Virus genome (UHGV): UHGV-0101699
DNA from: a virus
DNA length: 64,000 nucleotides
Reading direction: 5' to 3' (one strand)
The notes beneath the pieces are model-generated. The model was not told the DNA's origin, did no database searches, and saw only the letters and a list, made by a program, of their open reading frames with translations. Shown here in pieces: positions 2,275-59,931 of this stretch. A program made the translations under genes and the position numbers. Within the stretch, counting starts at the first letter, position 1; the number at the start of each line of letters is the position of its first letter.

Positions 2275-2505
2275 ATGGTAATTTTCATCTCTGGCGTTAA
2301 CATCAATAATGAATATTATATTAATCGCATCGCTGGGATCGCTGGGATCGCTGGGCGCGCAGTCGAGCTTATAGATGAAACGACGCGTAAAATTGACTTA
2401 CTGAGCGACCAGGAGCGAAAAAAAGCAGACGTGAACGACGCTGATATATTTTTAATGTTAAAAGCGTTTGCAGAAATGGGATTTAAAATCAGTTTACACA
2501 AATAA
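2275..2505 (+). CDS. hypothetical small protein (contains IAGIAGIAG triplet repeat)
   Basis: 76-aa ORF; cgctgggat x3 tandem repeat inside; followed by terminator. Confidence 0.45.
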   Translation: MVIFISGVNINNEYYINRIAGIAGIAGRAVELIDETTRKIDLLSDQERKKADVNDADIFLMLKAFAEMGFKISLHK

Positions 2506-2510
2506 AATCG

Positions 2511-2536
2511 AGCGCCCACTATGGGCGCTTTTTTCG
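2511..2536 (+). terminator. rho-independent terminator
   Basis: agcgccca-cta-tgggcgct stem followed by TTTTTT. Confidence 0.6.
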
Positions 2537-2553
2537 TTTCCAATACTCCCACC

Positions 2554-2579
2554 ATAACGCGCCAACAATGGCGCGTTAT
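2554..2579. repeat. palindrome ATAACGCGCCA-ACA-ATGGCGCGTTAT
   Basis: 11-bp perfect inverted repeat, same family as 2238 and 2511. Confidence 0.4.
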
Positions 2580-2994
2580 CTTTTATCTGGCGTTCACTCA
2601 TTCACACCAAAAATAAGCGCCATAAATGCGCCAATTTAACGCGTTTTTACGTGTGGTAGTACATACCCATTACACACAGTAAAAAACACGTTATAGCGCG
2701 TTTAAAAGCGTTTTAGCGCGTGGCTTATTTTGTCGTGTCGTGGGCGTGATCGTCTGGCGTTATCTGGTGACGTGATCCGCGCTATCCTTCGGGGCGTGTT
2801 GGCAATGTTGGCGCTATCCGTGGGCGCTCGCGTATCATTGGCGCGACGTGATCCGCGCTTGCAGTGGTTTACCCACGGATTCACATAATCACATAGCGAA
2901 AGCTATCTGGATGGCTCAGGGGCTGAAACTCCACCAGCGTTACCCCAGCGCCGCTACGCAATTTCTGGCGCGATTCTGGGCTTCTCCCGCTCTG

Positions 2995-3142
2995 TTTTCT
3001 ACATAAAGGCAAACCCAGCCGTTTCCCGAAAATTTCCTGACCGTTTCCCTTCGGTTCCCCTGACAGCCCTCTGGCCGTTTATGAATTTCCCTGCGGGAGC
3101 TGGTGGACGGAAAGAAAGGGGCGTTTCCAGCCCCCTCCCCTC
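2995..3142. repeat. non-coding repeat element copy 1 (shares 21-mer ACCCAGCCGTTTCCCGAAAAT with 6401)
   Basis: Shared 20-21-mer, shared TTCCCCTGCGGG segment and CCCCTCCCCTCTTA end with copy at 6376-6580. Confidence 0.5.
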
Positions 3143-3625
3143 TTACTTGCCAGCCAGTATGTGAATCCGATTGCTGGCGTATACATTCAGCATAAAGTTA
3201 GCGCAAAACAGTTTCCATGAGTCAACGCCAGCGGCATACGTGATGTTTTTGCATTTAATTGCATTGTTGGCGATCCGCATACCCTGCGCTATTGCTTCAT
3301 CATCGCTAAAATCGAAGGACGATTGAGTCTTAATCCAGATAGCGATCTGCGAGGCAAACTCAGTCAGCTTGGACTGGCAGAATCGCCCGGAGCGCACCGG
3401 GAAGACAAATGTTCCAAACCCAGAATTTACCACATACGCTTTCTCAAATACCCGCGTGAATCGACGGTTGCAAATGATGTCTTTGGCGATCTGCTGCTTC
3501 TCTTTCCCGGACAGCTGGATGGTCTCTTCTTCGCGCCAGGCGCCCAGGATGTTCTTTTCAATGTCGGAGTATGTAACAGAGATGGTGCCATGCGCGGGAG
3601 TGTTTACAGTGGCGATATAGTTCAT
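3143..3625 (-). CDS. hypothetical protein (160 aa)
   Basis: ORF preceded by conserved early promoter/leader motif at 3641-3676. Confidence 0.6.
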   Translation of the reverse strand: MNYIATVNTPAHGTISVTYSDIEKNILGAWREEETIQLSGKEKQQIAKDIICNRRFTRVFEKAYVVNSGFGTFVFPVRSGRFCQSKLTEFASQIAIWIKTQSSFDFSDDEAIAQGMRIANNAIKCKNITYAAGVDSWKLFCANFMLNVYASNRIHILAGK

Positions 3626-3640
3626 TGTGATAATCCTTTA

Positions 3641-3700
3641 AACAATTTGTTTTCTAGTTGGTTTAATTATCGCAGTGGGTGTGAGGTGTCCAAGCGTTCT
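3641..3700 (-). promoter_or_regulatory. early-class promoter: TTGGAC-16-GATAAT followed by AACAAATTGTTTA leader palindrome
   Basis: Motif family repeated at least 14 times upstream of minus-strand genes. Confidence 0.5.
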
Positions 3701-3830
3701 GTTTCGGCAGCTGGTGGCCGTCGGGAAGTCGGTGGGTGCTTCGGTAGCCTGGCGGTAAGAGGTGGGTGTTTTTAGCCTGCGGGAAAGCAGGTGGTAATTG
3801 AGGGCCACCAGCATCGGTGGCCCTCCCCTC

Positions 3831-4130
3831 TCAATGAAGTAATCCGATGTCGATGGTGTCGCCTGAATCTGTCACGCGGATCATCAGCATAGCGAAGGCA
3901 TTCAGTGGATAACCGGCGTGCCATTCCGGGAAGCGGTCATCGCGCATGAAATCGGCAATGTCATAAACGCTATCCTGATAATGGAAGAAGCGGGAGCTGG
4001 TTTGTTCGTCCGGTTCGACGTGATCCATTTCTTTCTGCTCGGCCGGCGACAGGTCAAGCCAGGATTCCAGCCATACGTTTTCTGCTTTCGGGGAGATGGT
4101 GAAATCAGTCATATTTACCACCAGGCGCAA
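3831..4130 (-). CDS. hypothetical protein (99 aa)
   Basis: ORF; stop followed by GAGGGCCACC-GATGCTG-GGTGGCCCTC hairpin. Confidence 0.55.
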   Translation of the reverse strand: MRLVVNMTDFTISPKAENVWLESWLDLSPAEQKEMDHVEPDEQTSSRFFHYQDSVYDIADFMRDDRFPEWHAGYPLNAFAMLMIRVTDSGDTIDIGLLH

Positions 4131-4495
4131 AATGTCAGTCTGTTATTGTAGAAGTCGTGATTTTTAATCAGCTCATCCACAAGCTCTTTCAGCTCTTCCA
4201 CGTCATTCCAGTACCCTTCATCGTACTCCTGACTACCGAAGAAAAACCCTTCCTGGGTAGGCAGATACTCTTCACAATTGCTTTCGTTTAGACGAATCAA
4301 ATCAGCCTTGAGAGCACAAATATCATTCATCGTAACTTCTAAAAGTTCACAATTTACAACTTCACCTACGTTACGGTTCATCCACCCAACGAGAGCATTG
4401 AACTTACGGAAGTAGCCAACTTGCTTTCTGGATGCCTCGTTATTCAGATCGTTTTTTGGCTGCGTCTCAATATAGATATCAAGTCCCATGAACAT
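4115..4495 (-). CDS. hypothetical protein (126 aa)
   Basis: ORF preceded by early motif at 4521-4580. Confidence 0.55.
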   Translation of the reverse strand: MFMGLDIYIETQPKNDLNNEASRKQVGYFRKFNALVGWMNRNVGEVVNCELLEVTMNDICALKADLIRLNESNCEEYLPTQEGFFFGSQEYDEGYWNDVEELKELVDELIKNHDFYNNRLTFCAWW

Positions 4496-4617
4496 TTCCT
4501 CAACTTCGTTAATAACTTGTTTTCTTGTTGGTGTTATTATCGCAACTCAGAAAAGGTATAAAACAACTTGTTTACGGGTTGGGGAAAAATGGCGCGGGTT
4601 ACGCGCCATTGGCTGGT

Positions 4618-5025
4618 TTACTGGACGTTGTAGACGGACTCAGGCAGATACTCTTCCAGAGAGCCGCCAGACACAATGGTTATGCCGTATGAACCAACCC
4701 AGGTATTGTTGGCGCCAAGGTTGCCCTCGATCATATCCTGAACCTGTGCCATCAGGTTTTCGAAAATGGTCTTCGGGTCTGTTCGATAATAGGCTTCAAT
4801 GGCGGCCAGCAGAGTGTCCGAACCATTTTTCACTGACTGCTCGCCGACGGCATAAACCTTCGAGCGATCACGCTTAAGAGTTGTGCGGGCCAGCTGGGTG
4901 GTCACATGCGGAACAGCCGATGCATCACGGAACTGAACGGTCAGCTGGGCCAGTTTATTGCCTTCTTCGTCAGTGCTGGATGCGTAGTAAAGGTCAAATA
5001 CTAAATCTTCTTTGGTCAAACTCAT
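4618..5025 (-). CDS. hypothetical protein (start MSLTKEDLV)
   Basis: GGAGG RBS 8 nt upstream of ATG at 5025; the longer ORF-track start lacks an RBS. Confidence 0.55.
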   Translation of the reverse strand: MSLTKEDLVFDLYYASSTDEEGNKLAQLTVQFRDASAVPHVTTQLARTTLKRDRSKVYAVGEQSVKNGSDTLLAAIEAYYRTDPKTIFENLMAQVQDMIEGNLGANNTWVGSYGITIVSGGSLEEYLPESVYNVQ

Positions 5026-5144
5026 TTTTACCTCCATGTAAATGCGTCGTAATACTATCGCCGTAGGTAAGTACTTACAATACAAAAAAGCCCCGAAGGA
5101 TCGACGGGGCTGTCGTAAATTCGACTAATCTGTGTTGCACATGA

Positions 5145-5456
5145 CTATGCTATGGCGAGGGTTGTTGCGCGTTGAATTTCCTGCTGGGCGACCTTGTTAA
5201 CTTCCAGTAAAGCCAACTCCAGATCTGACTCAGGCCAGATAACTTGTTTAGCTACCCATCCTTTCCCACTATGGCGCCGGACGTTCATTACAATGCGCTT
5301 GCGAGAAGTTTCGCCGAAGACGACAACGGTCTCTTTGAAAAGTCGGATGGCTGTGCCGTTGGCCACTATGTCCAGTAAAGTGATCGAACCGAGTACTGCA
5401 GGTTTGTCTTTGCGAGGCTGGAGCTTATCCAGTTTCAAAATCATCTCGGTATTCAT
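5145..5456 (-). CDS. hypothetical protein (start MNTEMILK)
   Basis: ORF with early motif immediately upstream (5466-5500). Confidence 0.5.
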   Translation of the reverse strand: MNTEMILKLDKLQPRKDKPAVLGSITLLDIVANGTAIRLFKETVVVFGETSRKRIVMNVRRHSGKGWVAKQVIWPESDLELALLEVNKVAQQEIQRATTLAIA

Positions 5457-5592
5457 TACACACTCCGTAAACAATTTGTTTTCTTGTTTGTGTAAATAAT
5501 ACCAGTGTGAAAACGGCCACCAAGCGAAGCGTTCCGGCATTCAGCTGGCCGCAGGCCACATTCATTAAAAAGCCACCTGCTGGTGGCCGTGG

Positions 5593-5805
5593 TTAATCTT
5601 CGTCAGGGAACTCCTCTTTCACTGCGGCCACCAGCTCCCGCTTCTCTTCATCAGTCAACAGGTGCCACACGTCCTTCCCTTTTGGTGACTCTCCCTTAGC
5701 TGGTACAAACGACCATAATTTACGGGTCAGTGCTGGCCCTACGCCATCAAGACACTCAGCCAGCGAGTCCACGCTCCATACTTCCACAATCACAGGCATA
5801 TCCAT
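5593..5805 (-). CDS. hypothetical small protein
   Basis: 70-aa ORF in minus-strand early gene array. Confidence 0.5.
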   Translation of the reverse strand: MDMPVIVEVWSVDSLAECLDGVGPALTRKLWSFVPAKGESPKGKDVWHLLTDEEKRELVAAVKEEFPDED

Positions 5806-5817
5806 TGTCTCTCTCCT

Positions 5818-6036
5818 TTATCTGGACTCTGACGTTGTGCAGTTCCACGCGACGGACATTGCGTTGTCCTCGATATGAAAATCAAACGTGCCCTCGCGAT
5901 ACCCTTCGCCAATCAGCGTACCAATGCGCCCAGCGACATCCGCAGAGCGGATAACGTCATCCAGAGAGATCTGGAGTTCGTCAGTACATGTCTCTTCTCC
6001 GCAAAGGGTGATGCTGATGTTCAAATGCTTGTACAT
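5818..6036 (-). CDS. hypothetical small protein
   Basis: 72-aa ORF; early motif at 6057-6125 upstream. Confidence 0.5.
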   Translation of the reverse strand: MYKHLNISITLCGEETCTDELQISLDDVIRSADVAGRIGTLIGEGYREGTFDFHIEDNAMSVAWNCTTSESR

Positions 6037-26118: not shown

Positions 26119-28422
26119 TTAGATTTTGCATGCGCCATCGCACTCATCTTCTGGCTCAACCAACGCAACAGAGGCCAGATCATCGTCTTCACGCTTACCG
26201 GCACCATCTCGTGTGTTGTGGTAATAAAGCGTCTTCACGCCTTGCTGATAAGCGAAGAGCAGATCTTCAAGCAACTTCATCATTGGAACCTTGTCGCCCG
26301 GGAAGCGAGTAGGGTCATAGTTGGTGTTGGCTGAAATAGCCTGGTCAAAGAACTTCTGAATGATCGCAACTTTGGTCAGATAGCCGCGGTTATCCGGCAT
26401 ATCCCAAAGGTACTCGTACTGATCTTTCAGCTCAGCAAAGTCCGGAACCACCATTTTCACAATGCCGTCTTTGGATGATTTCACGGAAACAGGACCACGC
26501 GGCGGTTCGATACCATTTGTGGAGTTGGTGATTTGGCTGGACGTTTCGCACGGCATCTGAGCTGTCAGGGTAGAGTTACGCAGACCATATTCGCGTATGC
26601 GGCCACGCAGCTCTTCCCAAGGCATTTTCAGCTCAAAAGACGTATCAGGGTTGGCATCAAGCGACTTGCGGTAATGGTCAATCGGCAGCTGTCCCTGGGC
26701 ATATTTAGTTTGGGAAAACCAATCACAGGCACCTTTGGCTTCCGCCAGCCGGCAACTTGCATCAAGCAGGTAATACTGGATCGCTTCAAACGTTTCATGC
26801 ACCAGCTGGTTGCCGGCCGGATCAGAGTAGTTAAATCCGTTCTTCGCCAGATAGTACGCAAGATTGGTAACGCCGACGCCCAAACTACGACGTGCTTTTG
26901 CCGGAATTTCCGCTGCGGCCATCGGGTAATCCTGATAGTCGAGTAGGGAATCGAGCGCAGCCACCGCATAGAATGCGACCTCTTTCAGCGTGTCCAGTGA
27001 GCGTAATGCCCCCAGATTAAACGCAGACAGCGTGCAAAGGGCGATCTCACCATCGGGGTCATCGGTAAACGCCAGCGGTTTAGTTGGCAGCGTAATCTCC
27101 ATGCATAAGTTTGACTGGTGAACTGGAGCGACTTTCGGCTCGAAGGCGCCGTGTTCGTTCATATGGTCAACGTTCGCAATATACACGCGGCCGGTAGAGG
27201 CTCGTTCCTGCATCAGGGTTGAGAACAGATCAACAGCAGGAACGGATTTCTTGCGGATGCTCTCGTCAGCTTCATATTGCAGGTACAGCGCTTCGAATTT
27301 GTCCTGATCGACAAAGAAAGCATCATAGAGCCCCGGTACATCATGCGGGCTGAACAGCGTAATATTCTCGTTGCGTACCAGGCGGCGATACATCAGGCGG
27401 TTGATCATTACGCCATAGTCCAGATGACGAACACGGTTCTCCTCGATGCCGCGGTTATTCTTCAATACCAGCAGACTTTCAACTTCCAGATGCCAAATAG
27501 GGTAGAAAGCCGTCGCTGCGCCACCTCGAACGCCACCCTGCGAGCATGATTTCACAGCGGTCTGGAAGTGTTTCAGAAAGGGGATTACGCCAGTGTGGGT
27601 GGCTTCTCCATTGCGGATCTCACTCCCCAATGCACGCAGTCGGCCAAAACCAATCCCAATGCCAGCACGACGCGACACGTAATCGATAATGGCAGAGGAC
27701 GCAGCGCTGATCCCTTTCAAACTGTCTTCGGACTCAATCAGAACGCAGCTGGAGAACTGGCGCGTCGGGGTACGGACGCCGGCCATGATTGGGGTGGGCA
27801 GAGACAATTTGAATGTACTGGTGACGTCATAGAACCCCTTCACCATTTCCAGACGTGTTTTGCCGGCACAACCATCTTCCCAATTCTGGAAAAGACACAT
27901 ACCCACCAGCATATACAGCTGCTGCGGGGCTTCGTAGATTTCGCCGGTGACTCGGTTCTGGACGAGGTACTTACTCGCCAGCTGAACAGTCGCGGCATAA
28001 CCAAAGAGTTCGTCACGCATGGGTTTGATATACACGCCAAGTTCTGCGATCTCTTCGCGGGAGTAAAACTTAAGCAAATCCTCATCGTAAACGCCGCGGC
28101 TGACGTTGCTGACGATATGATGATAGAAACTTGGGTAAGCGTATTCGCCGAAGGCATCTTTGCGAATTTTGAACATGTTCAGGCGTGCTGCGACCTGGGA
28201 GTAGTTCGGAGTTTCAGGCGAAATAAGATCTGCAGCCGACTTAACCAATGCCTCATGAAGCTGCGAAGTTGTCATGCCGTCAAAAATGCTCGCGGCGGCG
28301 CCCATGGCTACGGCAGAGGCGCTTACGTTACGTATACCTTCTACCCCCCACATCACGACGCGGTTGTACTTCTCTTCGGATAGCGGCTCTGTGGAGCCAT
28401 TACGTTTGACAATCCTTATCAT
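26119..28422 (-). CDS. nrdA: ribonucleotide reductase class Ia alpha subunit
   Basis: ATP-cone N-terminus (VKRNGSTEPL), catalytic NLCMEI and C-terminal Cys pair (ECDGACKI). Confidence 0.9.
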   Translation of the reverse strand: MIRIVKRNGSTEPLSEEKYNRVVMWGVEGIRNVSASAVAMGAAASIFDGMTTSQLHEALVKSAADLISPETPNYSQVAARLNMFKIRKDAFGEYAYPSFYHHIVSNVSRGVYDEDLLKFYSREEIAELGVYIKPMRDELFGYAATVQLASKYLVQNRVTGEIYEAPQQLYMLVGMCLFQNWEDGCAGKTRLEMVKGFYDVTSTFKLSLPTPIMAGVRTPTRQFSSCVLIESEDSLKGISAASSAIIDYVSRRAGIGIGFGRLRALGSEIRNGEATHTGVIPFLKHFQTAVKSCSQGGVRGGAATAFYPIWHLEVESLLVLKNNRGIEENRVRHLDYGVMINRLMYRRLVRNENITLFSPHDVPGLYDAFFVDQDKFEALYLQYEADESIRKKSVPAVDLFSTLMQERASTGRVYIANVDHMNEHGAFEPKVAPVHQSNLCMEITLPTKPLAFTDDPDGEIALCTLSAFNLGALRSLDTLKEVAFYAVAALDSLLDYQDYPMAAAEIPAKARRSLGVGVTNLAYYLAKNGFNYSDPAGNQLVHETFEAIQYYLLDASCRLAEAKGACDWFSQTKYAQGQLPIDHYRKSLDANPDTSFELKMPWEELRGRIREYGLRNSTLTAQMPCETSSQITNSTNGIEPPRGPVSVKSSKDGIVKMVVPDFAELKDQYEYLWDMPDNRGYLTKVAIIQKFFDQAISANTNYDPTRFPGDKVPMMKLLEDLLFAYQQGVKTLYYHNTRDGAGKREDDDLASVALVEPEDECDGACKI

Positions 28423-39575: not shown

Positions 39576-41921
39576 TTACTCGATGGTTTCTGTAGTGCCA
39601 GAAGACAGGTCTTTAGCTCGACGTTCGTCGATGGCCTGTAGCGCCGCAATGATCTCAGGAAGGGGCTTATCACGATACATGTCGACTATCTGCGATTTGG
39701 TGTACTTCTTGTCGCCAATCTCTACGCGGCCGCTGGCATTCTTTGGCAGGTATCCTTCTTCGAGCATGTGCTCAACCAGTGACTCGATAACGTCCAGACC
39801 GCGGGTCGGGTCGAAGTAGAATTTCCATGAGCATTTGCCGAATGGCGGTGCCACTTTGTTTTTGATGCACTCGGCGCCAACGTCCTGACCGATCTTATCT
39901 TTGCCATCCTTCATGACAGAAGCGCCAAGACGAATACGTACTGAGGCGTAGAACTTCGGAGAATCACCACCAGGGGAGGTGGTCGGATCGCCAAACATCA
40001 CGCCGATTTTTGTACGAACCTGGTTAAGGAAAATAATGCAGGCATTGTACTTGCGCGCCCATAGCGCCAGCGTTGGAAAGTTGGCGCTCGTGGCGCGAGC
40101 CAGGGCCGTATTATCGTTCATGTTTAGCTGATCTTTATCCTTCGCTGTACCTTCCGCCATTTTGTCGAACTTCTCGGCTTTGGAGTTTGGCACCATTGAC
40201 GCAAGGGAGTCGGCTACGATGCAAATAGGGGCGTCTGCGGGGATCAGCTCTTCGTCTCGCACCAGTTTCAGGATGGTGCCGATCAGCTCAACCGATTCTT
40301 CGAATGTGTCCGGCTGCTTATAGACCCACTGGCCGTCATCCTCATCCGCATTCAGCCCGTTTGCCACCGCCAGACCAACGTCAAAGCTGTTTTCGTGGTC
40401 GAGGAATACAGCCAGACCCTCCTGTTTCTGAGCGGAGACCATGGCGGCCGTCGCCAGGAATGTGTTGTGGCTGATAATCCCGTTAGACCAGAAAGAGTGT
40501 GTTTCCGGCATCGCTACGTCGAACGTTGGTGCTTCACCTTCCTCAATAGCCACGACTTCGTCGTAGAACAAGTTAGAGTCAATTACCGCTGCCAGTTGTG
40601 CAAACAGATGCTCGTTAAAACGATTCTTTCTGCCAATGAAGGAGACATAGATTTCTCGCAGTTTGTCTATTCCGACACGATCGCCGCGGCCAATAACGTG
40701 ATCTACCAGAACGTAGTCTTTACGAGAGGTCTTGGTGAGTGACTCGTAGAGTGATTTCACTAAGCCGCTGATGTGCGGAACGTAGCCTAAATAAGTGCGG
40801 TCAAAACTAATGTCCCGTTTGGTTGCCACTGCTAAACGAGCCGGAGACTCGAACCCAATCGTTGACAGGAAAAGGTCGTAGTTAGAGCCACTGAATGACA
40901 GCCGGTAATATATGTTTTTATAACCTGCGACGTGTTTTTCAGAGATAGTTGACGTAATCCCCAGATTCAGGAGCATGAGGCGAATTTGCTGTAGCAGCAG
41001 CCCACTCGCGCTCACAACCTCAATGCAGCGACCATCATTGACGTGGCATTCCAGCTCAAAGTAGCCGCGAAGGAATGCAATTTGAGCCTCGCTATTGGCG
41101 CGACGCACACTCAACGGAACCTGCTTGCCAGCAGCTTTCTCATACTCCAGACCATATTCTTTAAAAAGCAGCGAACGCACCTCTTTGCTAAACAGCACAT
41201 GGTCTTCCGAGCCGTTATGTTTTCTCGTAACTGGCATCTTGTCTGATACCAGCGAAATGAGGCGGTAGTACTCATCCTTGATGAATGGATCTGTGTTAGA
41301 AAAATGCACAGAATTTTCAGAGGCCACGTATCCGTCAGCAATTAAATAGCCCATCAGTTTTGCGATATTGGCATCCAAGTGCTGATCGCCGAATTGATGT
41401 GTGCCAACCATTGAAGGAATCGTGTCGCCTACACTGATTTTTTCAGCATACCGCCAGACGATATTGCCTAAGTCGTCAACCACACGAATTGGGTGACGGA
41501 ACGTAGCCTCGATGTAACCCCCTGATGCCAGCTTAATGCGCTTGAATTTGCGACGGTTGTTCCATGTCAGGTGTGAGGTCTTCTCTATCACGCCATTTTC
41601 ATTGATGAGTCCAACGTTATGCTCTACATCGCGAGTAGTGCATGTTGCTTTGTGCCCCTCAATCTCAAACAGTTCTTTCACTGTTACCATTCCACGCTCC
41701 GTCAGCAGCATGGTGTCTGCGGTAACACATTTCCCCGCACTTGGCGGCCCAAAGATCTCAACGATACGTCCGCTTGGGAAACCGCCGTCATAGCGCCCGG
41801 AGATGGCTTTATTCAGCGGAGGGAAGCCGGAATCAATCCAGTGTGAAACCTTTTGGATCTCGTCATTGCTGCCGATTTTCTTTTTTAATGCCATTGCCAG
41901 TGCTGATTTTCCTTTTGCCAT
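39576..41921 (-). CDS. recA: RecA-like recombinase interrupted by a 422-aa intein
   Basis: N-extein RIVEIFGPPSAGK and C-extein TFLATA ... LFINQVRTKIGVMFGDPTTSPGG ... KFYASVRI ... KNKVAPPF collinear with E. coli RecA (359 aa when joined). Confidence 0.85.
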   Translation of the reverse strand: MAKGKSALAMALKKKIGSNDEIQKVSHWIDSGFPPLNKAISGRYDGGFPSGRIVEIFGPPSAGKCVTADTMLLTERGMVTVKELFEIEGHKATCTTRDVEHNVGLINENGVIEKTSHLTWNNRRKFKRIKLASGGYIEATFRHPIRVVDDLGNIVWRYAEKISVGDTIPSMVGTHQFGDQHLDANIAKLMGYLIADGYVASENSVHFSNTDPFIKDEYYRLISLVSDKMPVTRKHNGSEDHVLFSKEVRSLLFKEYGLEYEKAAGKQVPLSVRRANSEAQIAFLRGYFELECHVNDGRCIEVVSASGLLLQQIRLMLLNLGITSTISEKHVAGYKNIYYRLSFSGSNYDLFLSTIGFESPARLAVATKRDISFDRTYLGYVPHISGLVKSLYESLTKTSRKDYVLVDHVIGRGDRVGIDKLREIYVSFIGRKNRFNEHLFAQLAAVIDSNLFYDEVVAIEEGEAPTFDVAMPETHSFWSNGIISHNTFLATAAMVSAQKQEGLAVFLDHENSFDVGLAVANGLNADEDDGQWVYKQPDTFEESVELIGTILKLVRDEELIPADAPICIVADSLASMVPNSKAEKFDKMAEGTAKDKDQLNMNDNTALARATSANFPTLALWARKYNACIIFLNQVRTKIGVMFGDPTTSPGGDSPKFYASVRIRLGASVMKDGKDKIGQDVGAECIKNKVAPPFGKCSWKFYFDPTRGLDVIESLVEHMLEEGYLPKNASGRVEIGDKKYTKSQIVDMYRDKPLPEIIAALQAIDERRAKDLSSGTTETIE
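40464..41729 (-). mobile_element. intein with LAGLIDADG homing-endonuclease domain inserted in the RecA Walker A motif
   Basis: Starts with Cys (CVTADTML), ends SHN followed by Thr; LMGYLIADGYV and LRGYFELECHV dodecapeptide motifs. Confidence 0.8.
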
Positions 41922-44753: not shown

Positions 44754-45102
44754 TTTGTTATGTATCCGCTTACTAATTTATATCAATAGTACCATGAAGA
44801 AATCAGCTGGTGGAGCATGTGTCGTGAAGATGAGAGGGGGTAGGTTGGGTAGAGACGTTTATGTGGCGACGCTGTGAAAAGGAAAATAAATGTTGCACAA
44901 ACAGAAAGGCCATGCGTTAATGATTGCGTCGGTTTGCAAGACAGACCTTATGAAAGCAGTTTTAGTAAAGCAGTCCGAAGTTCAGGTGTTATCCAAAGAT
45001 TACCCTTCTCCGTGAGTCTCCTCCTAAGTGCCCAAGTAAGTACCAATCTCTCAGACCAATTTCGCCGCGTTGTGTGGCTCTCAAATAATGAAGGTAATCT
45101 CT

Positions 45103-45318
45103 ATGTCTAACAAAATGACTGGTTTAGTAAAATGGTTTAACGCTGATAAAGGCTTCGGTTTTATTACCCCAGCAGACGGCAGCAAAGACGTGTTCGTACA
45201 TTTCTCTGCCATCCAGAGCAACAACTTCCGTACCCTGGAAGAAGGCCAAAAAGTTGAGTTCTCTATTGAGAACGGTGCTAAAGGCCCTGCTGCTTCAAAC
45301 GTAGTTACGTTGAGCTAA
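45103..45318 (+). CDS. cspA: cold-shock protein CspA family
   Basis: [38 protein letters not shown] ... near-identical to E. coli CspA; AAGG RBS; about 230-nt upstream leader. Confidence 0.9.
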
Positions 45319-45440
45319 TTTCATTTCGGTAATCTATCCGCTGCGATAACGATGACGGCCTGAGCCTGAGTAGTCAGTTTGGAAGGATTATTGGAAGGAG
45401 TTAAAGGTCGTTAGATCTGGACGGCTTCTCTACTAACTCC

Positions 45441-45472: not shown

Positions 45473-45914
45473 ATGCTACTTTTCTACCGAAAATGTTTGA
45501 TAGAGTGACTCTGGTCTGCCTCTTAAGCCGGTATCTTCTGACGTCGCCTATCTTGCTCACCTCCATGAACTCCTTGGCCACCTTCAGGACAAGACGGGCA
45601 CGGAACGCTTTAAATGAAGCCAGCTCTTCTTCTGGTTTGTCAGATTCATAAATCTCCAGAAGATATTGGCACGCCTTTGGATCTTGCGTTTTTAAAGCCA
45701 GCGCACGCGCGCATTTCCGTAATCGACAAATAGGGTCGGCGCCATCCTGCTTTGCAAACGCCAATGCCAGATCGAGCGTGACAGGGCAGTCAATGATTTC
45801 CCAGAACTGGGATCGCAGAGTGGCTTCAATCGCCTTCTCCTGAAACTCCTGTGGTATTGCTGTGAGCTCTTGAGCAATTTTATCCGCTGCGCTCATGTGT
45901 TTTCCTTTACTCAT
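45471..45914 (-). CDS. hypothetical protein (147 aa)
   Basis: ORF coupled downstream of the DnaE C-terminal fragment. Confidence 0.5.
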   Translation of the reverse strand: MSKGKHMSAADKIAQELTAIPQEFQEKAIEATLRSQFWEIIDCPVTLDLALAFAKQDGADPICRLRKCARALALKTQDPKACQYLLEIYESDKPEEELASFKAFRARLVLKVAKEFMEVSKIGDVRRYRLKRQTRVTLSNIFGRKVA

Positions 45915-47080
45915 TTGTTAATAGTCTCCGCAACCTCTGCCAGAATGGCTTCCAGCTTTTCTCCTTCCTCTGGACGGAAGTACAAAATATTCGGGTTAAA
46001 TCCATAGAACACGGTCACGTCCAGGTCTGGCAGATATTCTTTGCGCCCAACAAGATCGGATGGCTTGCTCTTGTTATTAAACAGCGATGTCGCCCGGCTG
46101 CCGCACGTCAGCACGTAAGTTGGACGAACCAGATTTATCTCTTCCCGCATAAAGTCGATAAACTGGCCGATCTCATCTTTGGTGTAGTCTTTTTCCTTAT
46201 CCTTTACCTTTTTACACACGCCTGTGACATACAAATCACCCATACGCAGGTCACCAGAAACCAGCAACTTGGCTTTGAAGTCATCGTAGCCGTTCTCCAT
46301 GAAGTAGCCGGTACGTGCATCATTGCCATTGGCGTTGTCGAGTATGACCATAATTTTTGGCTTAATGCCGATGCTTGGTCGTATCAACTCATCGCCCAGA
46401 CCCATTTCTGCGGCCATGCGAGTCATCAGCACATTGACCTCTGCAGAGCGTTTTGGGTTCATTTCAAATGGGCGTGAAGCTTTCACCGCATCGATCACCA
46501 GATTGCCCATCAGCTCTGCCTGATCGCGCAGACGTTCCGGATCGGTCGCCGGCATACTGCCAGGTTCAATAGAGGCGAATGCACCAACCTTTTGTAGAGA
46601 CTCACGTACTCGGCTGTTACAGGCTCGCTTCTCGACCGCTTCCTCAAATTGCTCAAGTGACTCGAATTTGCCGCCAACTTTCTCACGCGCTCTCATGATG
46701 GCCTGGCAACCATTCTCAGAGCAGCCTTTCACAGCAGAGAATGGCGCATACAGAACCTGGCTGCCGTCTTCCAGCGTGCGGATCTCAATTCGGTTAGATG
46801 ACACGTTAACGTCTGGTGGCAATACGCGAATGCCATAGGTCAGCGCATCCTTAACCAGCCCCTGGTGCTTATCCTCGCCCAGAATGGTGAGAGCAGCAGC
46901 GAAGAACTCAGCAGGGTAATGTGTCTTTAACCACATAGACTGATAGCTGATCAGCGAGTAGGCAACGGAGTGTGATTTGTTGAAGGCATATCCACCGAAC
47001 TTCTCAAAGGCGTCCCATACTTCTTGGGCTTTCTCAGGGCTAAGACCTTCCTGCTCGGAAATAACTTTGGCAATTTTCAT
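45911..47080 (-). CDS. dnaE: DNA polymerase III alpha (DnaE-type) C-terminal fragment
   Basis: FGGYAFNKSHSVAYSLISYQSMWLKTHYPAEF matches the DnaE motif region around residue 800 onward; OB-fold tail. Confidence 0.85.
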   Translation of the reverse strand: MKIAKVISEQEGLSPEKAQEVWDAFEKFGGYAFNKSHSVAYSLISYQSMWLKTHYPAEFFAAALTILGEDKHQGLVKDALTYGIRVLPPDVNVSSNRIEIRTLEDGSQVLYAPFSAVKGCSENGCQAIMRAREKVGGKFESLEQFEEAVEKRACNSRVRESLQKVGAFASIEPGSMPATDPERLRDQAELMGNLVIDAVKASRPFEMNPKRSAEVNVLMTRMAAEMGLGDELIRPSIGIKPKIMVILDNANGNDARTGYFMENGYDDFKAKLLVSGDLRMGDLYVTGVCKKVKDKEKDYTKDEIGQFIDFMREEINLVRPTYVLTCGSRATSLFNNKSKPSDLVGRKEYLPDLDVTVFYGFNPNILYFRPEEGEKLEAILAEVAETINK

Positions 47081-47802
47081 GTGTTTTTCCCGTCATTAGC
47101 TTCAAACGCTAGCTTTTTTAAGATATTTGCGATTTGAGTGTTAGAGATGCCGAATTTTTCTCGCAACTTTTCATAGGTTGCGCCAGCCTTGCGCAAGGCG
47201 ACCACCTCAGCTCTTGCTTCAGCATCCAGTTTTTTGGATGCTCTTGAGACAACGATCGGCCCACCAACTCGTGCCCATTTCTTCCCGGTGACGATATGGT
47301 GAATGTAAAGCTCAGTTAAACCATATTCGGCCGCGAGGTCTTTGTTCAGAGCGCCTTCTGACTTTTTAATGCGAATAGCAATGACGACTTCGTTGGTTAG
47401 CTTGGCGTTGTAGCGCCTCTCACCAAACTCAACGGTATCGTGTGCAATGGCGTCAGCCATGTTGTCGACTTGAGTGCCATACGCGAGATTGGAGGGCGCA
47501 TTGTTTGATGGTCTTCCGTCAAGATGACGAATAAGTAAGCCTTCTGGTCGTTCTCCGTGGAATGCAGTTGCTACCAGATAATGGACTGTGCGGTCGCATT
47601 TGACGCCGTTGACGCTTAGTTTCACGCCCAGATGTCCAAAATCATTGATTACGCGAGGTTTGAGGATTTGCCCCTTCTTCACCCATTCGCCCCCATTGGG
47701 GGCTGTTCGTATAACATCTAAAGAGCGAATGCGACCTAAACTGGATGCTTCGTAATAACCTTCAAACTCAGGAATGGATTTCCAAATTTCTTCCACCGTC
47801 AA
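47077..47802 (-). CDS. HNH homing endonuclease (NUMOD4/HNH_3 type) inserted within dnaE
   Basis: EFEGYYEASSLGRIRSL N-terminal module; HYLVATAFHG ... RHLDGRPSNN HNH motif; ATGA start/stop overlaps with both dnaE fragments. Confidence 0.8.
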   Translation of the reverse strand: MTVEEIWKSIPEFEGYYEASSLGRIRSLDVIRTAPNGGEWVKKGQILKPRVINDFGHLGVKLSVNGVKCDRTVHYLVATAFHGERPEGLLIRHLDGRPSNNAPSNLAYGTQVDNMADAIAHDTVEFGERRYNAKLTNEVVIAIRIKKSEGALNKDLAAEYGLTELYIHHIVTGKKWARVGGPIVVSRASKKLDAEARAEVVALRKAGATYEKLREKFGISNTQIANILKKLAFEANDGKNT

Positions 47803-50162
47803 ACTCCAAAATCAACAATATCAGCGTTATCACCAATCGCTTCGTCATAGGTTCTGCGTTTGCCGTCAGAGCACATCAGCTTGGCCTTTTTGTGGACTTC
47901 TACTGTGCTTCCGTTTTCAAGTGACAGTGTCACCCAACCTGCTTGCGCTCGTTCTACAAAATCGCTGCCGATCGCTTTCATCTTATCCATGTTCTTTTTA
48001 CCGATAGCGGAACGCAGAGCGTCAGCCTCAGCCATAGAGAATCCAGCGAGTACGCGAGAGCTTTTCATGATCTGCTCTTGATAGAGTAAAACGCCGTTGG
48101 TTTCTTTAGTTGCTTCCTCAAGACGCGGATGAATTGAATGTGGAGCCATAAAACCTTTTGCCACGGAGACATAGTCGTCCAACATGCCTGACTGAATTGG
48201 ACCTGGTCTGAAAAGCGCAGTTGTGGCCACAATGGTTTTGAAGCTCATTGGCTCGATACCACCACCCAGATCTTTGAGTAGCTTCCTCATGGGGCCGGAC
48301 TCAAGCTGGAACACACCTTGCGTATACCCCGCGGCGAATCCATCAAGTACTTTGCGATCATCCAGTGGGATGGCATCGAGGTTGACGTCCTTACCGGTGC
48401 TCTCTTTGATGTAACGTTTTGCGCTATCCAGCAGATCGAGAGTGGCCAGGCCCAGAACGTCCAGTTTGATCAGCCCCATGGCCTCGCAGTATCGTTTATC
48501 GAATGCGATGCAACGCGCGTCTCCACGTCGCTCTACAGGGGTACGTTCCGTCAGAGGTACGCCAGCAACAATCATCCCTGCAGCATGGCGGCCGAAGCCA
48601 CGCATCAGGTTTTGCAACTTGCTCGCCGCCTTAAATGCGTCCGGATGTTTGGTGGCGTACTTGTCCAGGCTGGCCAGCTGCTCGCGCAGCTCCGACAGAG
48701 ATAAACTGTCATCCTCCAGGGTCTTTAGCTCCTTGGAAACAGCCATATCCGCCGCATCAACTCCATAAATACGCGCTGTGTCGCGCAGTGCGGAAGCGGC
48801 GCCCAGATAAGTGAAGTTCGGAATGCCTGCAACATACTCTTCGCCATATCGGGCATTCAGATACTCGATCACCTCATGGCGCCGCGCCTGGCTAAAGTCC
48901 AAATCCGCATCCGGCAAGTCGAGACGTTCAGGGTTAATGAAACGTTCGAACAGAAGACCATGACGGATTGGGTCAACGTTAGTAATGCCGATGCACCATG
49001 CCACCAGAGAGCCGGCGGATGAACCACGACCTGGCCCGACAGGAATACCAGTCTCGCGACTATGATTCATCAGATCGCGAACCATCAGGAAATAACCGCA
49101 GAATCCCAGGCGAGTGAGCGTTTCCATTTCATACTTGAGGCGATCGACGTAAATGCGGTGCTCGGAAGCTGGTGGCGTGTAGCCAAATTCTTTGTTGCTG
49201 AGACGTTTTCGAAGCCCTGCGACAGCCAGTTTCATCAACGTTGCAGGCTCATCGTCTGCCATTTTTGGCAGCGCCGGCGCCATCTCGTGCCAGCGCCATT
49301 CGCACGCCTTAACAATGGAGTCCTGCGTTGTAGAAGCCATGGCGGCAGACACAGATACGCCCATCCGGACAGAAAACTCTTTCAGAGCCTGCAGCAGATG
49401 ACGGCGACCATTTATTGCATTGTCGCGCTGGTGGGGGATACGCAGCCGGTGTGGCTGATCGACTTTGATATTGTTCATCACCATGTGGGCGATGTCTTTG
49501 ATGTCAGCGTCATCAACCCCTTCGTAATAAGCTGGGTAAAACGCAACGGGCTCGATTTTCAGTGCGCTTGCCACTTTCATGGCTCGCACGTTGATCTGGT
49601 CATAGAATGGCGTAGGGTGTGGATATACGACGCTGTAGAAATTATCGCGTCCACCGGCAGTAATCAGCGCACTAATAATTTTAGCGAAGTCCGGGCGCTG
49701 GAATACGCTGCCGATATCCGAAGTCAGTAACAGTATATTGCCTTTAGCGTATGTAGCCGCCAACTGGTCGAGCGCCAGGCGTGGCACGAAGTAAAACTGC
49801 TCGCGGGTATTGGCTAAAGTCATTAGTTCGCAAATGTCGCGATAACCTTGCTCGTTTTTAATCAGTGCGGTGAAGCAGTAGTTACGTCCACGCTCCAATG
49901 ATTCCATACATCCATTAGACTCTTTAGCCAGTTTAGCCCGGTACTCGTATGTTGGATCGTCGACAACATTCAGCTTAACACCACAGATCACCGCCATCTC
50001 ATCGCCAGCTGCTCGTTGCAGGGGGATAACGCTGGCGATATTCATCGTGTCAGCAGAGATAACCGCGGTATAGCCAGCCTCCTTTGCCACCTTTACTGCG
50101 TGCTCTGCTTTCAGTGCTGATTCTCCCAGGGAAAAATCAGTCCTGACCATCAGTGCTTTCAT
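47799..50162 (-). CDS. dnaE: DNA polymerase III alpha (DnaE-type) N-terminal fragment (PHP + polymerase core)
   Basis: PHP-domain N-terminus; GPGRGSSAGSLVAWCIGIT polymerase motif; ends with a 40-aa tail with no counterpart in E. coli DnaE. Confidence 0.85.
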   Translation of the reverse strand: MKALMVRTDFSLGESALKAEHAVKVAKEAGYTAVISADTMNIASVIPLQRAAGDEMAVICGVKLNVVDDPTYEYRAKLAKESNGCMESLERGRNYCFTALIKNEQGYRDICELMTLANTREQFYFVPRLALDQLAATYAKGNILLLTSDIGSVFQRPDFAKIISALITAGGRDNFYSVVYPHPTPFYDQINVRAMKVASALKIEPVAFYPAYYEGVDDADIKDIAHMVMNNIKVDQPHRLRIPHQRDNAINGRRHLLQALKEFSVRMGVSVSAAMASTTQDSIVKACEWRWHEMAPALPKMADDEPATLMKLAVAGLRKRLSNKEFGYTPPASEHRIYVDRLKYEMETLTRLGFCGYFLMVRDLMNHSRETGIPVGPGRGSSAGSLVAWCIGITNVDPIRHGLLFERFINPERLDLPDADLDFSQARRHEVIEYLNARYGEEYVAGIPNFTYLGAASALRDTARIYGVDAADMAVSKELKTLEDDSLSLSELREQLASLDKYATKHPDAFKAASKLQNLMRGFGRHAAGMIVAGVPLTERTPVERRGDARCIAFDKRYCEAMGLIKLDVLGLATLDLLDSAKRYIKESTGKDVNLDAIPLDDRKVLDGFAAGYTQGVFQLESGPMRKLLKDLGGGIEPMSFKTIVATTALFRPGPIQSGMLDDYVSVAKGFMAPHSIHPRLEEATKETNGVLLYQEQIMKSSRVLAGFSMAEADALRSAIGKKNMDKMKAIGSDFVERAQAGWVTLSLENGSTVEVHKKAKLMCSDGKRRTYDEAIGDNADIVDFGV

Positions 50163-59621: not shown

Positions 59622-59708
59622 TTGGCGGAGGATAATGGAATCGAACCATCATCGCTTTCGCAATGGGACGGTTTTCAAGACCGCTTGGGCGCCATGCCCT
59701 CTATCCTC
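59622..59708 (-). tRNA. tRNA-Ser (anticodon UGA), CCA encoded
   Basis: GGAGGAT acceptor, anticodon arm GCGGTCTTGAAAACCGT identical to E. coli tRNA-Ser(UGA), long variable arm, T-arm GGTTCGATTCC. Confidence 0.75.
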
Positions 59709-59856
59709 CGTTCGTTGTGACGCCAGATGCTTATCTTCTGGTTGCTTCAACGAGCTGCAATTCATCACAACGGTAAGGGCATTCAGGGAATCAGATCCGT
59801 CGCGAACAGCCAAAGAGCGCGCCTTCCTTGCTGTCGTCCAAATACCCTTACCGTTG

Positions 59857-59931
59857 TGGCGATGGTGGGTGGATTCGAACCACCGACCAGTTGATTAACA
59901 GTCAACCGCTCTACCACTGAGCTACACCATC
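59857..59931 (-). tRNA. tRNA-Asn (anticodon GUU), CCA encoded
   Basis: GATGGTGTAGCTCAGTGGTAGAGC D-arm, anticodon loop CTGTTAA, T-arm GGTGGTTCGAATCCACC, 7-bp acceptor. Confidence 0.85.

Follow-up and report, generated by a model that had tools for sequence, protein, structure and literature searches.

The 64,000-nucleotide stretch of UHGV virus genome UHGV-0101699 analysed here (the window) carries a RecA-like recombinase gene whose ATP-binding P-loop is interrupted by 422 codons, and this locus raises the question of what the insert is, whether the interrupted gene can still supply a working recombinase, and how the insert came to sit where it does. The original prediction, drawn from the letters of the DNA, described a RecA-like recombinase in which a LAGLIDADG intein separates the Walker A Lys from the Thr, and Pfam, NCBIfam, an intein-less allele and the predicted fold all agree with it. 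The insert is almost certainly an intein, and, with a probability of roughly 0.85, we read it as a bifunctional class-1 intein with a nested monomeric double-LAGLIDADG homing endonuclease, which lies at the Walker A Lys|Thr and spreads by homing.

The boundaries of the insert are exact, because the gene of Klebsiella phage ST13-OXA48phi12.3, an intein-less allele, runs colinear with that of the window and lacks precisely residues 65-486, reading GPPSAGK-TFLATAAM across the site. Exactly 422 codons are absent also from pHCM2, pSLy3, SP15_P2 and other intein-less alleles. In the precursor, GPPSAGK occupies residues 58-64 and is followed in frame by the insert of 1266 bp, which opens with Cys, closes with IISHN and is succeeded by Thr; the exteins of 64 and 295 amino acids and the 422-residue insert with Cys first, His-Asn last and Thr next, as originally described, are confirmed by the translation of the open reading frame (ORF). 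A precise in-frame insertion at a conserved site, with colinear homologues that lack it, is characteristic of inteins and is what is found here. A GGAG ribosome-binding site and the stop codon of an upstream 88-aa ORF lie immediately 5' of the precursor ATG. The positions of these and other features are collected in Table 1.

Table 1. Features of the window discussed in the text, numbered from the first letter of the whole stretch.
Feature	Position	Strand	Remarks
Precursor ORF, UvsX/RecA-like recombinase interrupted by intein	39576..41921	-	781 aa, 86.7 kDa
N-extein, ending in Walker A residues GPPSAGK	41730..41921	-	64 aa; from intein-less alignment
Intein: HINT splicing domain, nested double-motif LAGLIDADG endonuclease, helical region	40464..41729	-	422 aa, 47.7 kDa
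C-extein with stop codon	39576..40463	-	295 aa; starts with Thr of GKT
Block A, Cys1 codon	41727..41729	-	nucleophile of first splicing step
Block B, T76-F-R-H79 (TxxH)	41493..41504	-	Thr and His kept in most homologues covering the region
LAGLIDADG motif 1, LMGYLIADG	41331..41357	-	D132 at end of predicted helix 120-131
LAGLIDADG motif 2, FLRGYFELEC	41046..41075	-	E227 at end of predicted helix 213-227
Block F, TFDVAMPETHSF	40491..40526	-	D405 and H411
Block G, IISHN	40464..40478	-	penultimate His421, terminal Asn422
+1 Thr codon ACA	40461..40463	-	Walker A Thr and transesterification nucleophile
Upstream junction flank GCGGGGAAA	41730..41738	-	identical in 8/8 intein-containing alleles, any extein lineage
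Downstream junction flank ACATTCCT	40456..40463	-	identical in 8/8 intein-containing alleles
DNA polymerase III alpha (dnaE-like) gene, in two parts	45911..50162	-	
dnaE-like, N part	47799..50162	-	787 aa; PHP, pol3_alpha, finger domains
dnaE-like, C part	45911..47080	-	389 aa; HHH_6
Free-standing NUMOD4, HNH_3 and helix-turn-helix endonuclease ORF	47077..47802	-	241 aa; start and stop overlap the flanking dnaE ORFs
Rfam cspA thermoregulator RF01766, full-length match	44928..45351	+	188.6 bits, gathering score 78
tRNA-Ser (tga) and tRNA-Asn (gtt) genes	59623..59709 and 59857..59931	- and -	
Class I ribonucleotide reductase large subunit	26119..28422	-	767 aa

The exteins place the interrupted gene in the RecA superfamily. 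Pfam detects RecA (PF00154, 3.8e-37) in two stretches of the precursor, the N-extein P-loop GPPSAGK aligns with the RecA sequence GPESSGK, and PDB RecA chains match at 2e-27. The C-extein contributes the Walker B ICIVADS and the L2-like NQVRTKIGVMFGDPTTSPGG, while the Walker A GPPSAGK|T is re-formed on splicing; Walker A, Walker B and an L2-like motif, the hallmarks of the RecA/RadA superfamily ATPase core, are all present. The exteins had been said to align end-to-end with bacterial RecA, of which the part concerning the ATPase core stands and the rest does not: the spliced protein aligns through residues 45-307 only with positions 49-284 of the 321 in TIGR02012 (RecA), and its score (1.8e-45, 155.7 bits) is below the equivalog cutoff of 325.3. 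The precursor is likewise no member of NF007072, 'intein-containing recombinase RecA', to which it scores 97.9 bits against a cutoff of 1024 in a match confined to extein residues 484-691. The best functionally named PHROG of the host protein is phrog_97, 'UvsX-like recombinase' (6e-90). On the strength of these matches the host protein is classed as a UvsX/RecA-like phage recombinase of the RecA superfamily, not as a bacterial RecA equivalog. Its gene sits in a recombination module with a gp32-like single-stranded DNA-binding protein, a 5'-3' exonuclease and a small ORF that the annotators of phage Cyrano called UvsY-like. The GC content of the intein (47.9%) differs from that of the exteins (50.5% and 53.6%), which weakly supports a foreign origin.

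Within the insert, the sequence features of a class-1 intein are complete, namely the block A Cys, the block B TxxH, blocks F and G, and the +1 Thr. The original prediction had allowed for a non-intein domain lacking blocks A, B, F and G, and all four were found; in the comparison with intein models that it proposed, NCBIfam TIGR01445 intein_Nterm (34.4 bits, cutoff 24.5) and TIGR01443 intein_Cterm (17.8 bits, cutoff 15.6) were both passed, and Pfam Intein_splicing PF14890 matched at 1.7e-11 (residues 73-486). Profile matches to intein-containing RFC and aIF2 models already begin in the P-loop (from residues 53-57 on), ahead of the intein. The two LAGLIDADG-type dodecapeptides noted at the outset are also there, LMGYLIADGYVA at intein residues 125-136 and FLRGYFELECHV at 219-230; each belongs to a LAGLIDADG helix with a terminal acidic residue, as in monomeric two-motif enzymes, and LAGLIDADG_3 (PF14528) matches the insert at 4.5e-18.

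An AlphaFold model of the intein built on 14 homologues (predicted local distance difference test, pLDDT, 86.8; predicted template modelling score, pTM, 0.88) points to the same two parts. It predicts a HINT fold that brings the N- and C-termini of the intein together, and a pseudo-dimeric alpha-beta-beta-alpha-beta-beta-alpha endonuclease core. The top Foldseek matches in the PDB were bifunctional inteins (TliVMA 7qss, E 7e-26, TM 0.74; PI-PfuI, PI-PkoII, PhoVMA and PI-SceI); the endonuclease core matched I-DmoI (TMt ~0.7), I-Tsp061I and the endonuclease domains of PI-PfuI and PI-SceI, and the HINT part matched mini-inteins, including the GyrA mini-intein 1am2 and the branched-intermediate structure 4oz6. 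The two-domain architecture predicted for the window intein is that of TliVMA (7qss), PI-PfuI (1dq3), PI-PkoII (2cw7) and PI-SceI (1vde/1lws), with E values of 7e-26 to 1e-10; these inteins have 10-22% sequence identity to it, and different hosts and targets.

Selection on the gene is consistent with both functions. The ratio of nonsynonymous to synonymous rates (dN/dS) against more diverged copies is 0.13-0.23 in the endonuclease-containing middle of the intein and 0.0-0.10 in its N-terminal splicing region, and these low values argue that the splicing and endonuclease activities are both maintained. Between Cyrano and PhiR41_1, which both contain the intein, the exteins differ by 27 synonymous changes and 1 nonsynonymous change, and extein dN/dS between intein-containing alleles is 0.01-0.08 overall. 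Such purifying selection suggests that the interrupted gene still yields a working recombinase and would therefore indirectly imply efficient splicing. Judged from the sequences, the intein very probably splices, and its endonuclease is probably active at present.

The insertion point is of a kind already described. An intein between the invariant Lys and the Thr of a P-loop is regarded as a 'classic' insertion (PMC5050341), and GPPSAGK|C...N|T, between the invariant Lys and the +1 Thr, is exactly this arrangement. The suggestion that the site could be a previously uncatalogued one is consequently unlikely to hold, given also the RadA P-loop inteins, the same-site RecA relatives described below and the naming of some copies by the Prokaryotic Genome Annotation Pipeline (PGAP). 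ATPase P-loops are intein hot-spots and RecA is among the top bacterial intein hosts (PMC4760082); the first bacterial inteins were found in mycobacterial RecA (PMC5050341), and the P-loop inteins of archaeal RadA compromise its ATPase activity until splicing (PMC5790916, PMC8529194). The RadA inteins of Pyrococcus horikoshii and Thermococcus sibericus resemble that of the window in having a RecA/RadA superfamily host and an ATPase P-loop site, but they are archaeal, chromosomal, temperature-gated mini-inteins without an endonuclease, whereas that of the window, of full length and equipped with a LAGLIDADG domain, belongs to a phage-plasmid of enterobacteria and bears signs of being mobile at present. 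The mycobacteriophage TerL1-a inteins are phage-borne and likewise lie between the Walker A Lys and the nucleophilic Thr (PMC5050341), although their host is a terminase. The window protein has a weak match to the terminase family phrog_17415 (1.3e-8). The mycobacterial RecA inteins (M. tuberculosis PI-MtuI, M. leprae) share a RecA-family host with the window intein and occupy other RecA sites, outside the P-loop. In 2015, Novikova and colleagues reportedly counted 56 RecA inteins, some of them in Proteobacteria.

Relatives at the same GK|C...HN|T/S point occur in the RecA of an Anaerolineae metagenome-assembled genome, in the metagenomic RecAs P0004-P0018 and in the RecA of Bacillus phage fHSPT3. 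They are 28-45% identical to the window intein (41-45% for metagenomic RecA inteins, 33% for that of fHSPT3), share the C-terminal blocks TFDV.MPETHSFW.N..ISHN and the LAGLIDADG motifs, and reside in bona fide bacterial RecA (with a RecA_C domain) or Herelleviridae RecA; none is named an intein by its source. A further relative, with a decayed endonuclease, lies at the same P-loop point in a RecA encoded on a 550-kb contig of an NCBI assembly. The helicase intein of Staphylococcus phage Twort ORF006 and its Herelleviridae relatives match the window intein along all 422 aa at 31-34% identity, likewise follow a P-loop GK (ATNGGK|C...VNHN|T) and are annotated as inteins in several phage records, but their host, unlike the window recombinase, is a superfamily 2 (SF2)/UvsW-like helicase of Gram-positive virulent phages. 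As a separate observation, the Anaerolineae gene (DAOTTO010000406.1, 1222-4209) encodes a 995-aa bacterial RecA with two inteins, a P-loop intein of the full LAGLIDADG type (GPESSGK|C...MISHN|T, 45% identical to the window intein) and a mini-intein in loop L2 (GVMFG|C...VVHN|SPETT). Literature searches found no publication on the window intein itself; the phage Cyrano paper does not mention the intein that Cyrano carries, and two Bacillus-phage papers mention inteins in general terms alone.

How the intein reached this gene is best approached through its distribution. The region is 99.6% identical to Klebsiella phage vB_KpnS_p4727; its relatives include the Escherichia phages Cyrano and PhiR41_1, phage SSU5 of Salmonella, S. 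Typhi pHCM2 and Y. pestis plasmids, and this kinship identifies the window as a Klebsiella phage-plasmid of the SSU5/pHCM2 type. By BLAST, the recombinase gene is present in 684 PLSDB plasmids and the intein DNA in 248; the gene and the intein were found, respectively, in 134 and 123 plasmids of Escherichia, 312 and 71 of Klebsiella, 91 and 41 of Enterobacter, 25 and 6 of Citrobacter, 49 and 1 of Salmonella, and 63 and 0 of Yersinia. Among 5,426 complete E. coli genomes, 120 have the intein, every copy being plasmid-borne, and the zero chromosomal matches in this set led us to reject an invasion of the host's chromosomal recA. The exact sequence of the window protein already exists in NCBI and UniRef, in a cluster of 1,496 members (90% identity). 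With such numbers in plasmids, genomes and protein clusters, the intein is not the rarity among enterobacterial phages that it was first taken to be. A single-protein scan of genome contigs returned just one Kluyvera copy and one Anaerolineae relative.

Partial intein matches were considered as natural mini-inteins and rejected, two of them (L015, NZ_CP162200.1, 3018-4265; L016, NZ_CP075717.1, 3072-4466) being 5'-truncated gene fragments beside insertion sequence (IS) elements. Both are gene copies that start inside the intein; the E. coli plasmids that hold them are larger and not of phage type, their neighbours there are IS elements and a gene for a restriction protein or helicase, and they are annotated 'recombinase' or 'hypothetical protein'. 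They are phage-plasmid fragments captured by other plasmids.

Eleven alleles, and then three more, were extracted for comparison. By extein sequence they form four lineages (Klebsiella, pHCM2-type, Cronobacter and Cyrano-type E. coli) that are mutually 82-86% identical with dS of 0.9-2.1, while the intein is 99.7-100% identical among the Klebsiella, pHCM2-type and Cronobacter lineages and 97-98% identical between these and Cyrano-type E. coli. The plasmid pNT1F34-108k of E. coli, for example, shows 0/1266 mismatches to the window in the intein, against 29/192 and 136/840 in the two exteins. The intein-less alleles compared come from three of the four lineages (Klebsiella, pHCM2-type and Cyrano-type E. 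coli), in each of which sisters at least 98.5% identical over the compared region lack the intein; Cronobacter is represented by intein-containing alleles. A near-identical intein in diverged exteins with empty sisters is the pattern that would be expected from repeated recent invasion rather than from vertical descent, and the comparative data point to homing that is ongoing or very recent. Intein diversity is highest in Escherichia, with 97-98% identity among E. coli copies and 92% in E. albertii. The E. albertii copy (L013, plasmid p3RM15115, CP043243.1, about 2300-5900), the most diverged at 92% of nucleotides, is itself intact; its C-extein is broken after ...EKFEKMAE by an insertion of ~1.2 kb, and the gene is unannotated in the record. 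Compared with Cyrano, its intein is ~94% and its N-extein 99.5% identical, the reverse of the pattern in the other lineages.

The bases next to the junction tell more about how the intein moved. The flanks GCGGGGAAA and ACATTCCT, which we infer to be co-converted donor flanks, do not vary among the eight intein-containing alleles examined (Table 1), and the +1 Thr codon is ACA in all eight of these and ACC or ACG in all seven intein-less alleles examined. The empty Klebsiella site reads GCTGGTAAA|ACC, the empty pHCM2-type site GCCGGTAAA|ACCTTTTT (the pHCM2 site also being given as GCCGGTAAA|ACCTTTTTG), and the empty pSLy3 site GCAGGGAAA|ACG. Differences between alleles gather at the junction: for a Citrobacter intein-plus allele against pHCM2, 10/15 lie within +-60 nt of it (binomial P = 8e-7); for pNT1F34 against pHCM2, 6/36 lie within +-10 nt (P = 6e-5); and for the window against ST13phi, 3/15 lie within +-10 nt (P = 3e-3). 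Conversion tracts start within 3-57 nt of the insertion point in independent lineages, a pattern that fits repair of a break at the site and not recombination at random points in flanks of poor homology.

The source of the flanks was sought with reconstructed empty sites of 120 nt, searched against PLSDB (reconstruction ...AGCGCGGGGAAA|ACATTCCTT..., for which the natural E. coli SP15_P2 site has ACG at +3; empty site with the E. coli-type flank, ...GCGGGGAAA|ACNTTCCT...). The intein-associated flank appears in none of the ~238 Klebsiella-type or 174 pHCM2-type empty sites of PLSDB, whose best matches to the reconstructed site were 117/120 and 111/120. The generalization that no empty site has this flank is ruled out by the 7 Cyrano-type E. 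coli empty alleles, which match at 119/120 with +3 as the sole difference. Over the full N-extein and the initial 317 nt of the C-extein, +3 (ACG instead of ACA) is the one position at which these alleles depart from Cyrano. The upstream flank signature would accordingly be native to the Cyrano-type Escherichia lineage, as the probable source of the flank, and it appears that a single, almost clonal variant of the intein recently moved out of that Escherichia background into the other lineages, together with a few to a few tens of flanking bases. The A at +3 is the sole position that separates all intein-plus from all empty alleles examined; it may have hitch-hiked with the intein, or it may mark target resistance.

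Put together as a cycle, translation would give the 86.7-kDa precursor, which is expected to be inactive as an ATPase because its P-loop is split. By established intein chemistry, an N-S acyl shift at Cys1 would be followed by attack of the +1 Thr and by cyclisation of Asn422 assisted by His421. Splicing would free the intein and re-form GPPSAGK-T in the recombinase; the predicted masses of the two products, 47.7 and 39.1 kDa, agree with the 47 and 39 kDa originally proposed. The free intein would then act as a site-specific endonuclease on empty alleles when two related phage-plasmids share one cell, and double-strand-break repair would provide the empty allele with a copy of the intein and of a few to a few tens of bases beside it.

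Not all of this cycle need be running. Splicing could be intact and the endonuclease dead, in which case the intein would spread only through ordinary homologous recombination between phage-plasmids in the same cell, or be carried along by plasmid clones that do well. The last residue of motif 2 is Cys and not Gly, and with this non-canonical FELEC endonuclease activity is not to be assumed; the same-site relatives P0011, P0015, P0017 and P0018 have decayed endonuclease regions, and most Klebsiella-type alleles are still empty. We nevertheless consider a dead endonuclease quite unlikely, since the low dN/dS of the endonuclease region, with both acidic residues kept, the identity of the intein in alleles that are 14-18% diverged, and conversion tracts that begin so near the insertion in independent lineages all fit a site-specific enzyme better. 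It is scarcely credible that a non-splicing LAGLIDADG gene has been fused into recA or disrupts it, with the recombinase a pseudogene or part of a permanent fusion. The designation of most copies by PGAP and UniRef as 'LAGLIDADG family homing endonuclease', and the label 'unknown function' that PHROGs gives to the 779-position phrog_9666, to which the whole precursor belongs, could be taken in that sense, but all splicing blocks are present, the curated models for both intein termini pass their cutoffs, the insertion falls exactly in frame at Lys|Thr, a HINT fold is predicted around the endonuclease, and the extein dN/dS is incompatible with a dead gene.

The intein might also have been recruited as a conditional-splicing switch, responsive to redox, temperature or lytic induction, that holds the recombinase inactive, a role that is compatible with homing. 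Conditional splicing is documented for the P-loop inteins of RadA, which block ATPase activity until they are removed (PMC5790916, PMC8529194), ATP-sparing arguments have been made for RecA/RadA inteins (PMC4760082), and the window intein has, in addition to Cys1, the cysteines Cys30, Cys228 and Cys235. Intein-less alleles are nonetheless common in otherwise near-identical plasmids, so the host has no need of the intein, and we think such a recruitment very unlikely. A further account, which we regard as unlikely, takes the synonymous +3 change (ACA against ACG or ACC), together with changes at -7, -4, +6 and +7 in Klebsiella-type and pHCM2-type empty alleles, to mark target-site resistance: all cleavable sites would already have been invaded and the surviving empty alleles would be immune to the endonuclease, while conditional splicing might additionally gate the recombinase. 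If true, this would be a late-stage homing cycle in clinically tracked Enterobacteriaceae plasmids. For the preferred reading, a bifunctional intein that spreads by homing, several points count as objections besides the FELEC ending. Splicing, DNA cleavage and the cleavage site are inferred from sequence; the base-by-base comparison covers about a dozen alleles, and the population counts of gene and intein are BLAST summaries. The identity of the intein across lineages demonstrates recent transfer but does not identify the enzyme behind it. Finally, ~77% of Klebsiella-lineage plasmids are intein-less, which could reflect poor cutting by the endonuclease or rare encounters.

Other parts of the window also hold features of note. 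The dnaE-like gene is in two parts that correspond to residues 1-782 and 788-1170 of the uninterrupted 1172-aa protein of Escherichia phage PhiR41_1, and the NUMOD4/HNH_3 ORF between them has the appearance of another homing element, of a different type, within this replication/recombination module. The RF01766 match implies a cspA-like cold-shock gene with its 5' untranslated region between the recombination genes and dnaE, and two tRNA genes lie further on (Table 1). Class I ribonucleotide reductase large subunits are frequent intein hosts; in that of the window, a Pfam scan found no intein or endonuclease domain.

In summary, the element is unpublished yet visible in databases; both its kind and the type of site that it occupies are well known, and it is common in the SSU5/pHCM2-like plasmid family. 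It stands slightly above routine on two counts: the phage-plasmids of E. coli and Klebsiella bear a clean population-level signature of ongoing homing, and the protein is systematically mis-annotated. Most RefSeq copies are called 'LAGLIDADG family homing endonuclease', other names in use are 'recombinase RecA', 'Protein RecA', 'RecA/RadA recombinase' and 'hypothetical protein', and some RefSeq copies annotated by PGAP are 'intein-containing recombinase RecA' or 'hint domain-containing protein'; the 1,496-member cluster is thus usually mislabelled, and an apt name would be intein-containing UvsX/RecA-like recombinase. Recombination between SSU5/pHCM2-type phage-plasmids from different genera can be traced cheaply by the presence or absence of the intein together with its flank signature. 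Because this homing intein, full-length and apparently active, is native to E. coli and Klebsiella, and hundreds of intein-plus and intein-minus sister plasmids are already sequenced, homing, co-conversion and target-site resistance could be studied in the most tractable host.

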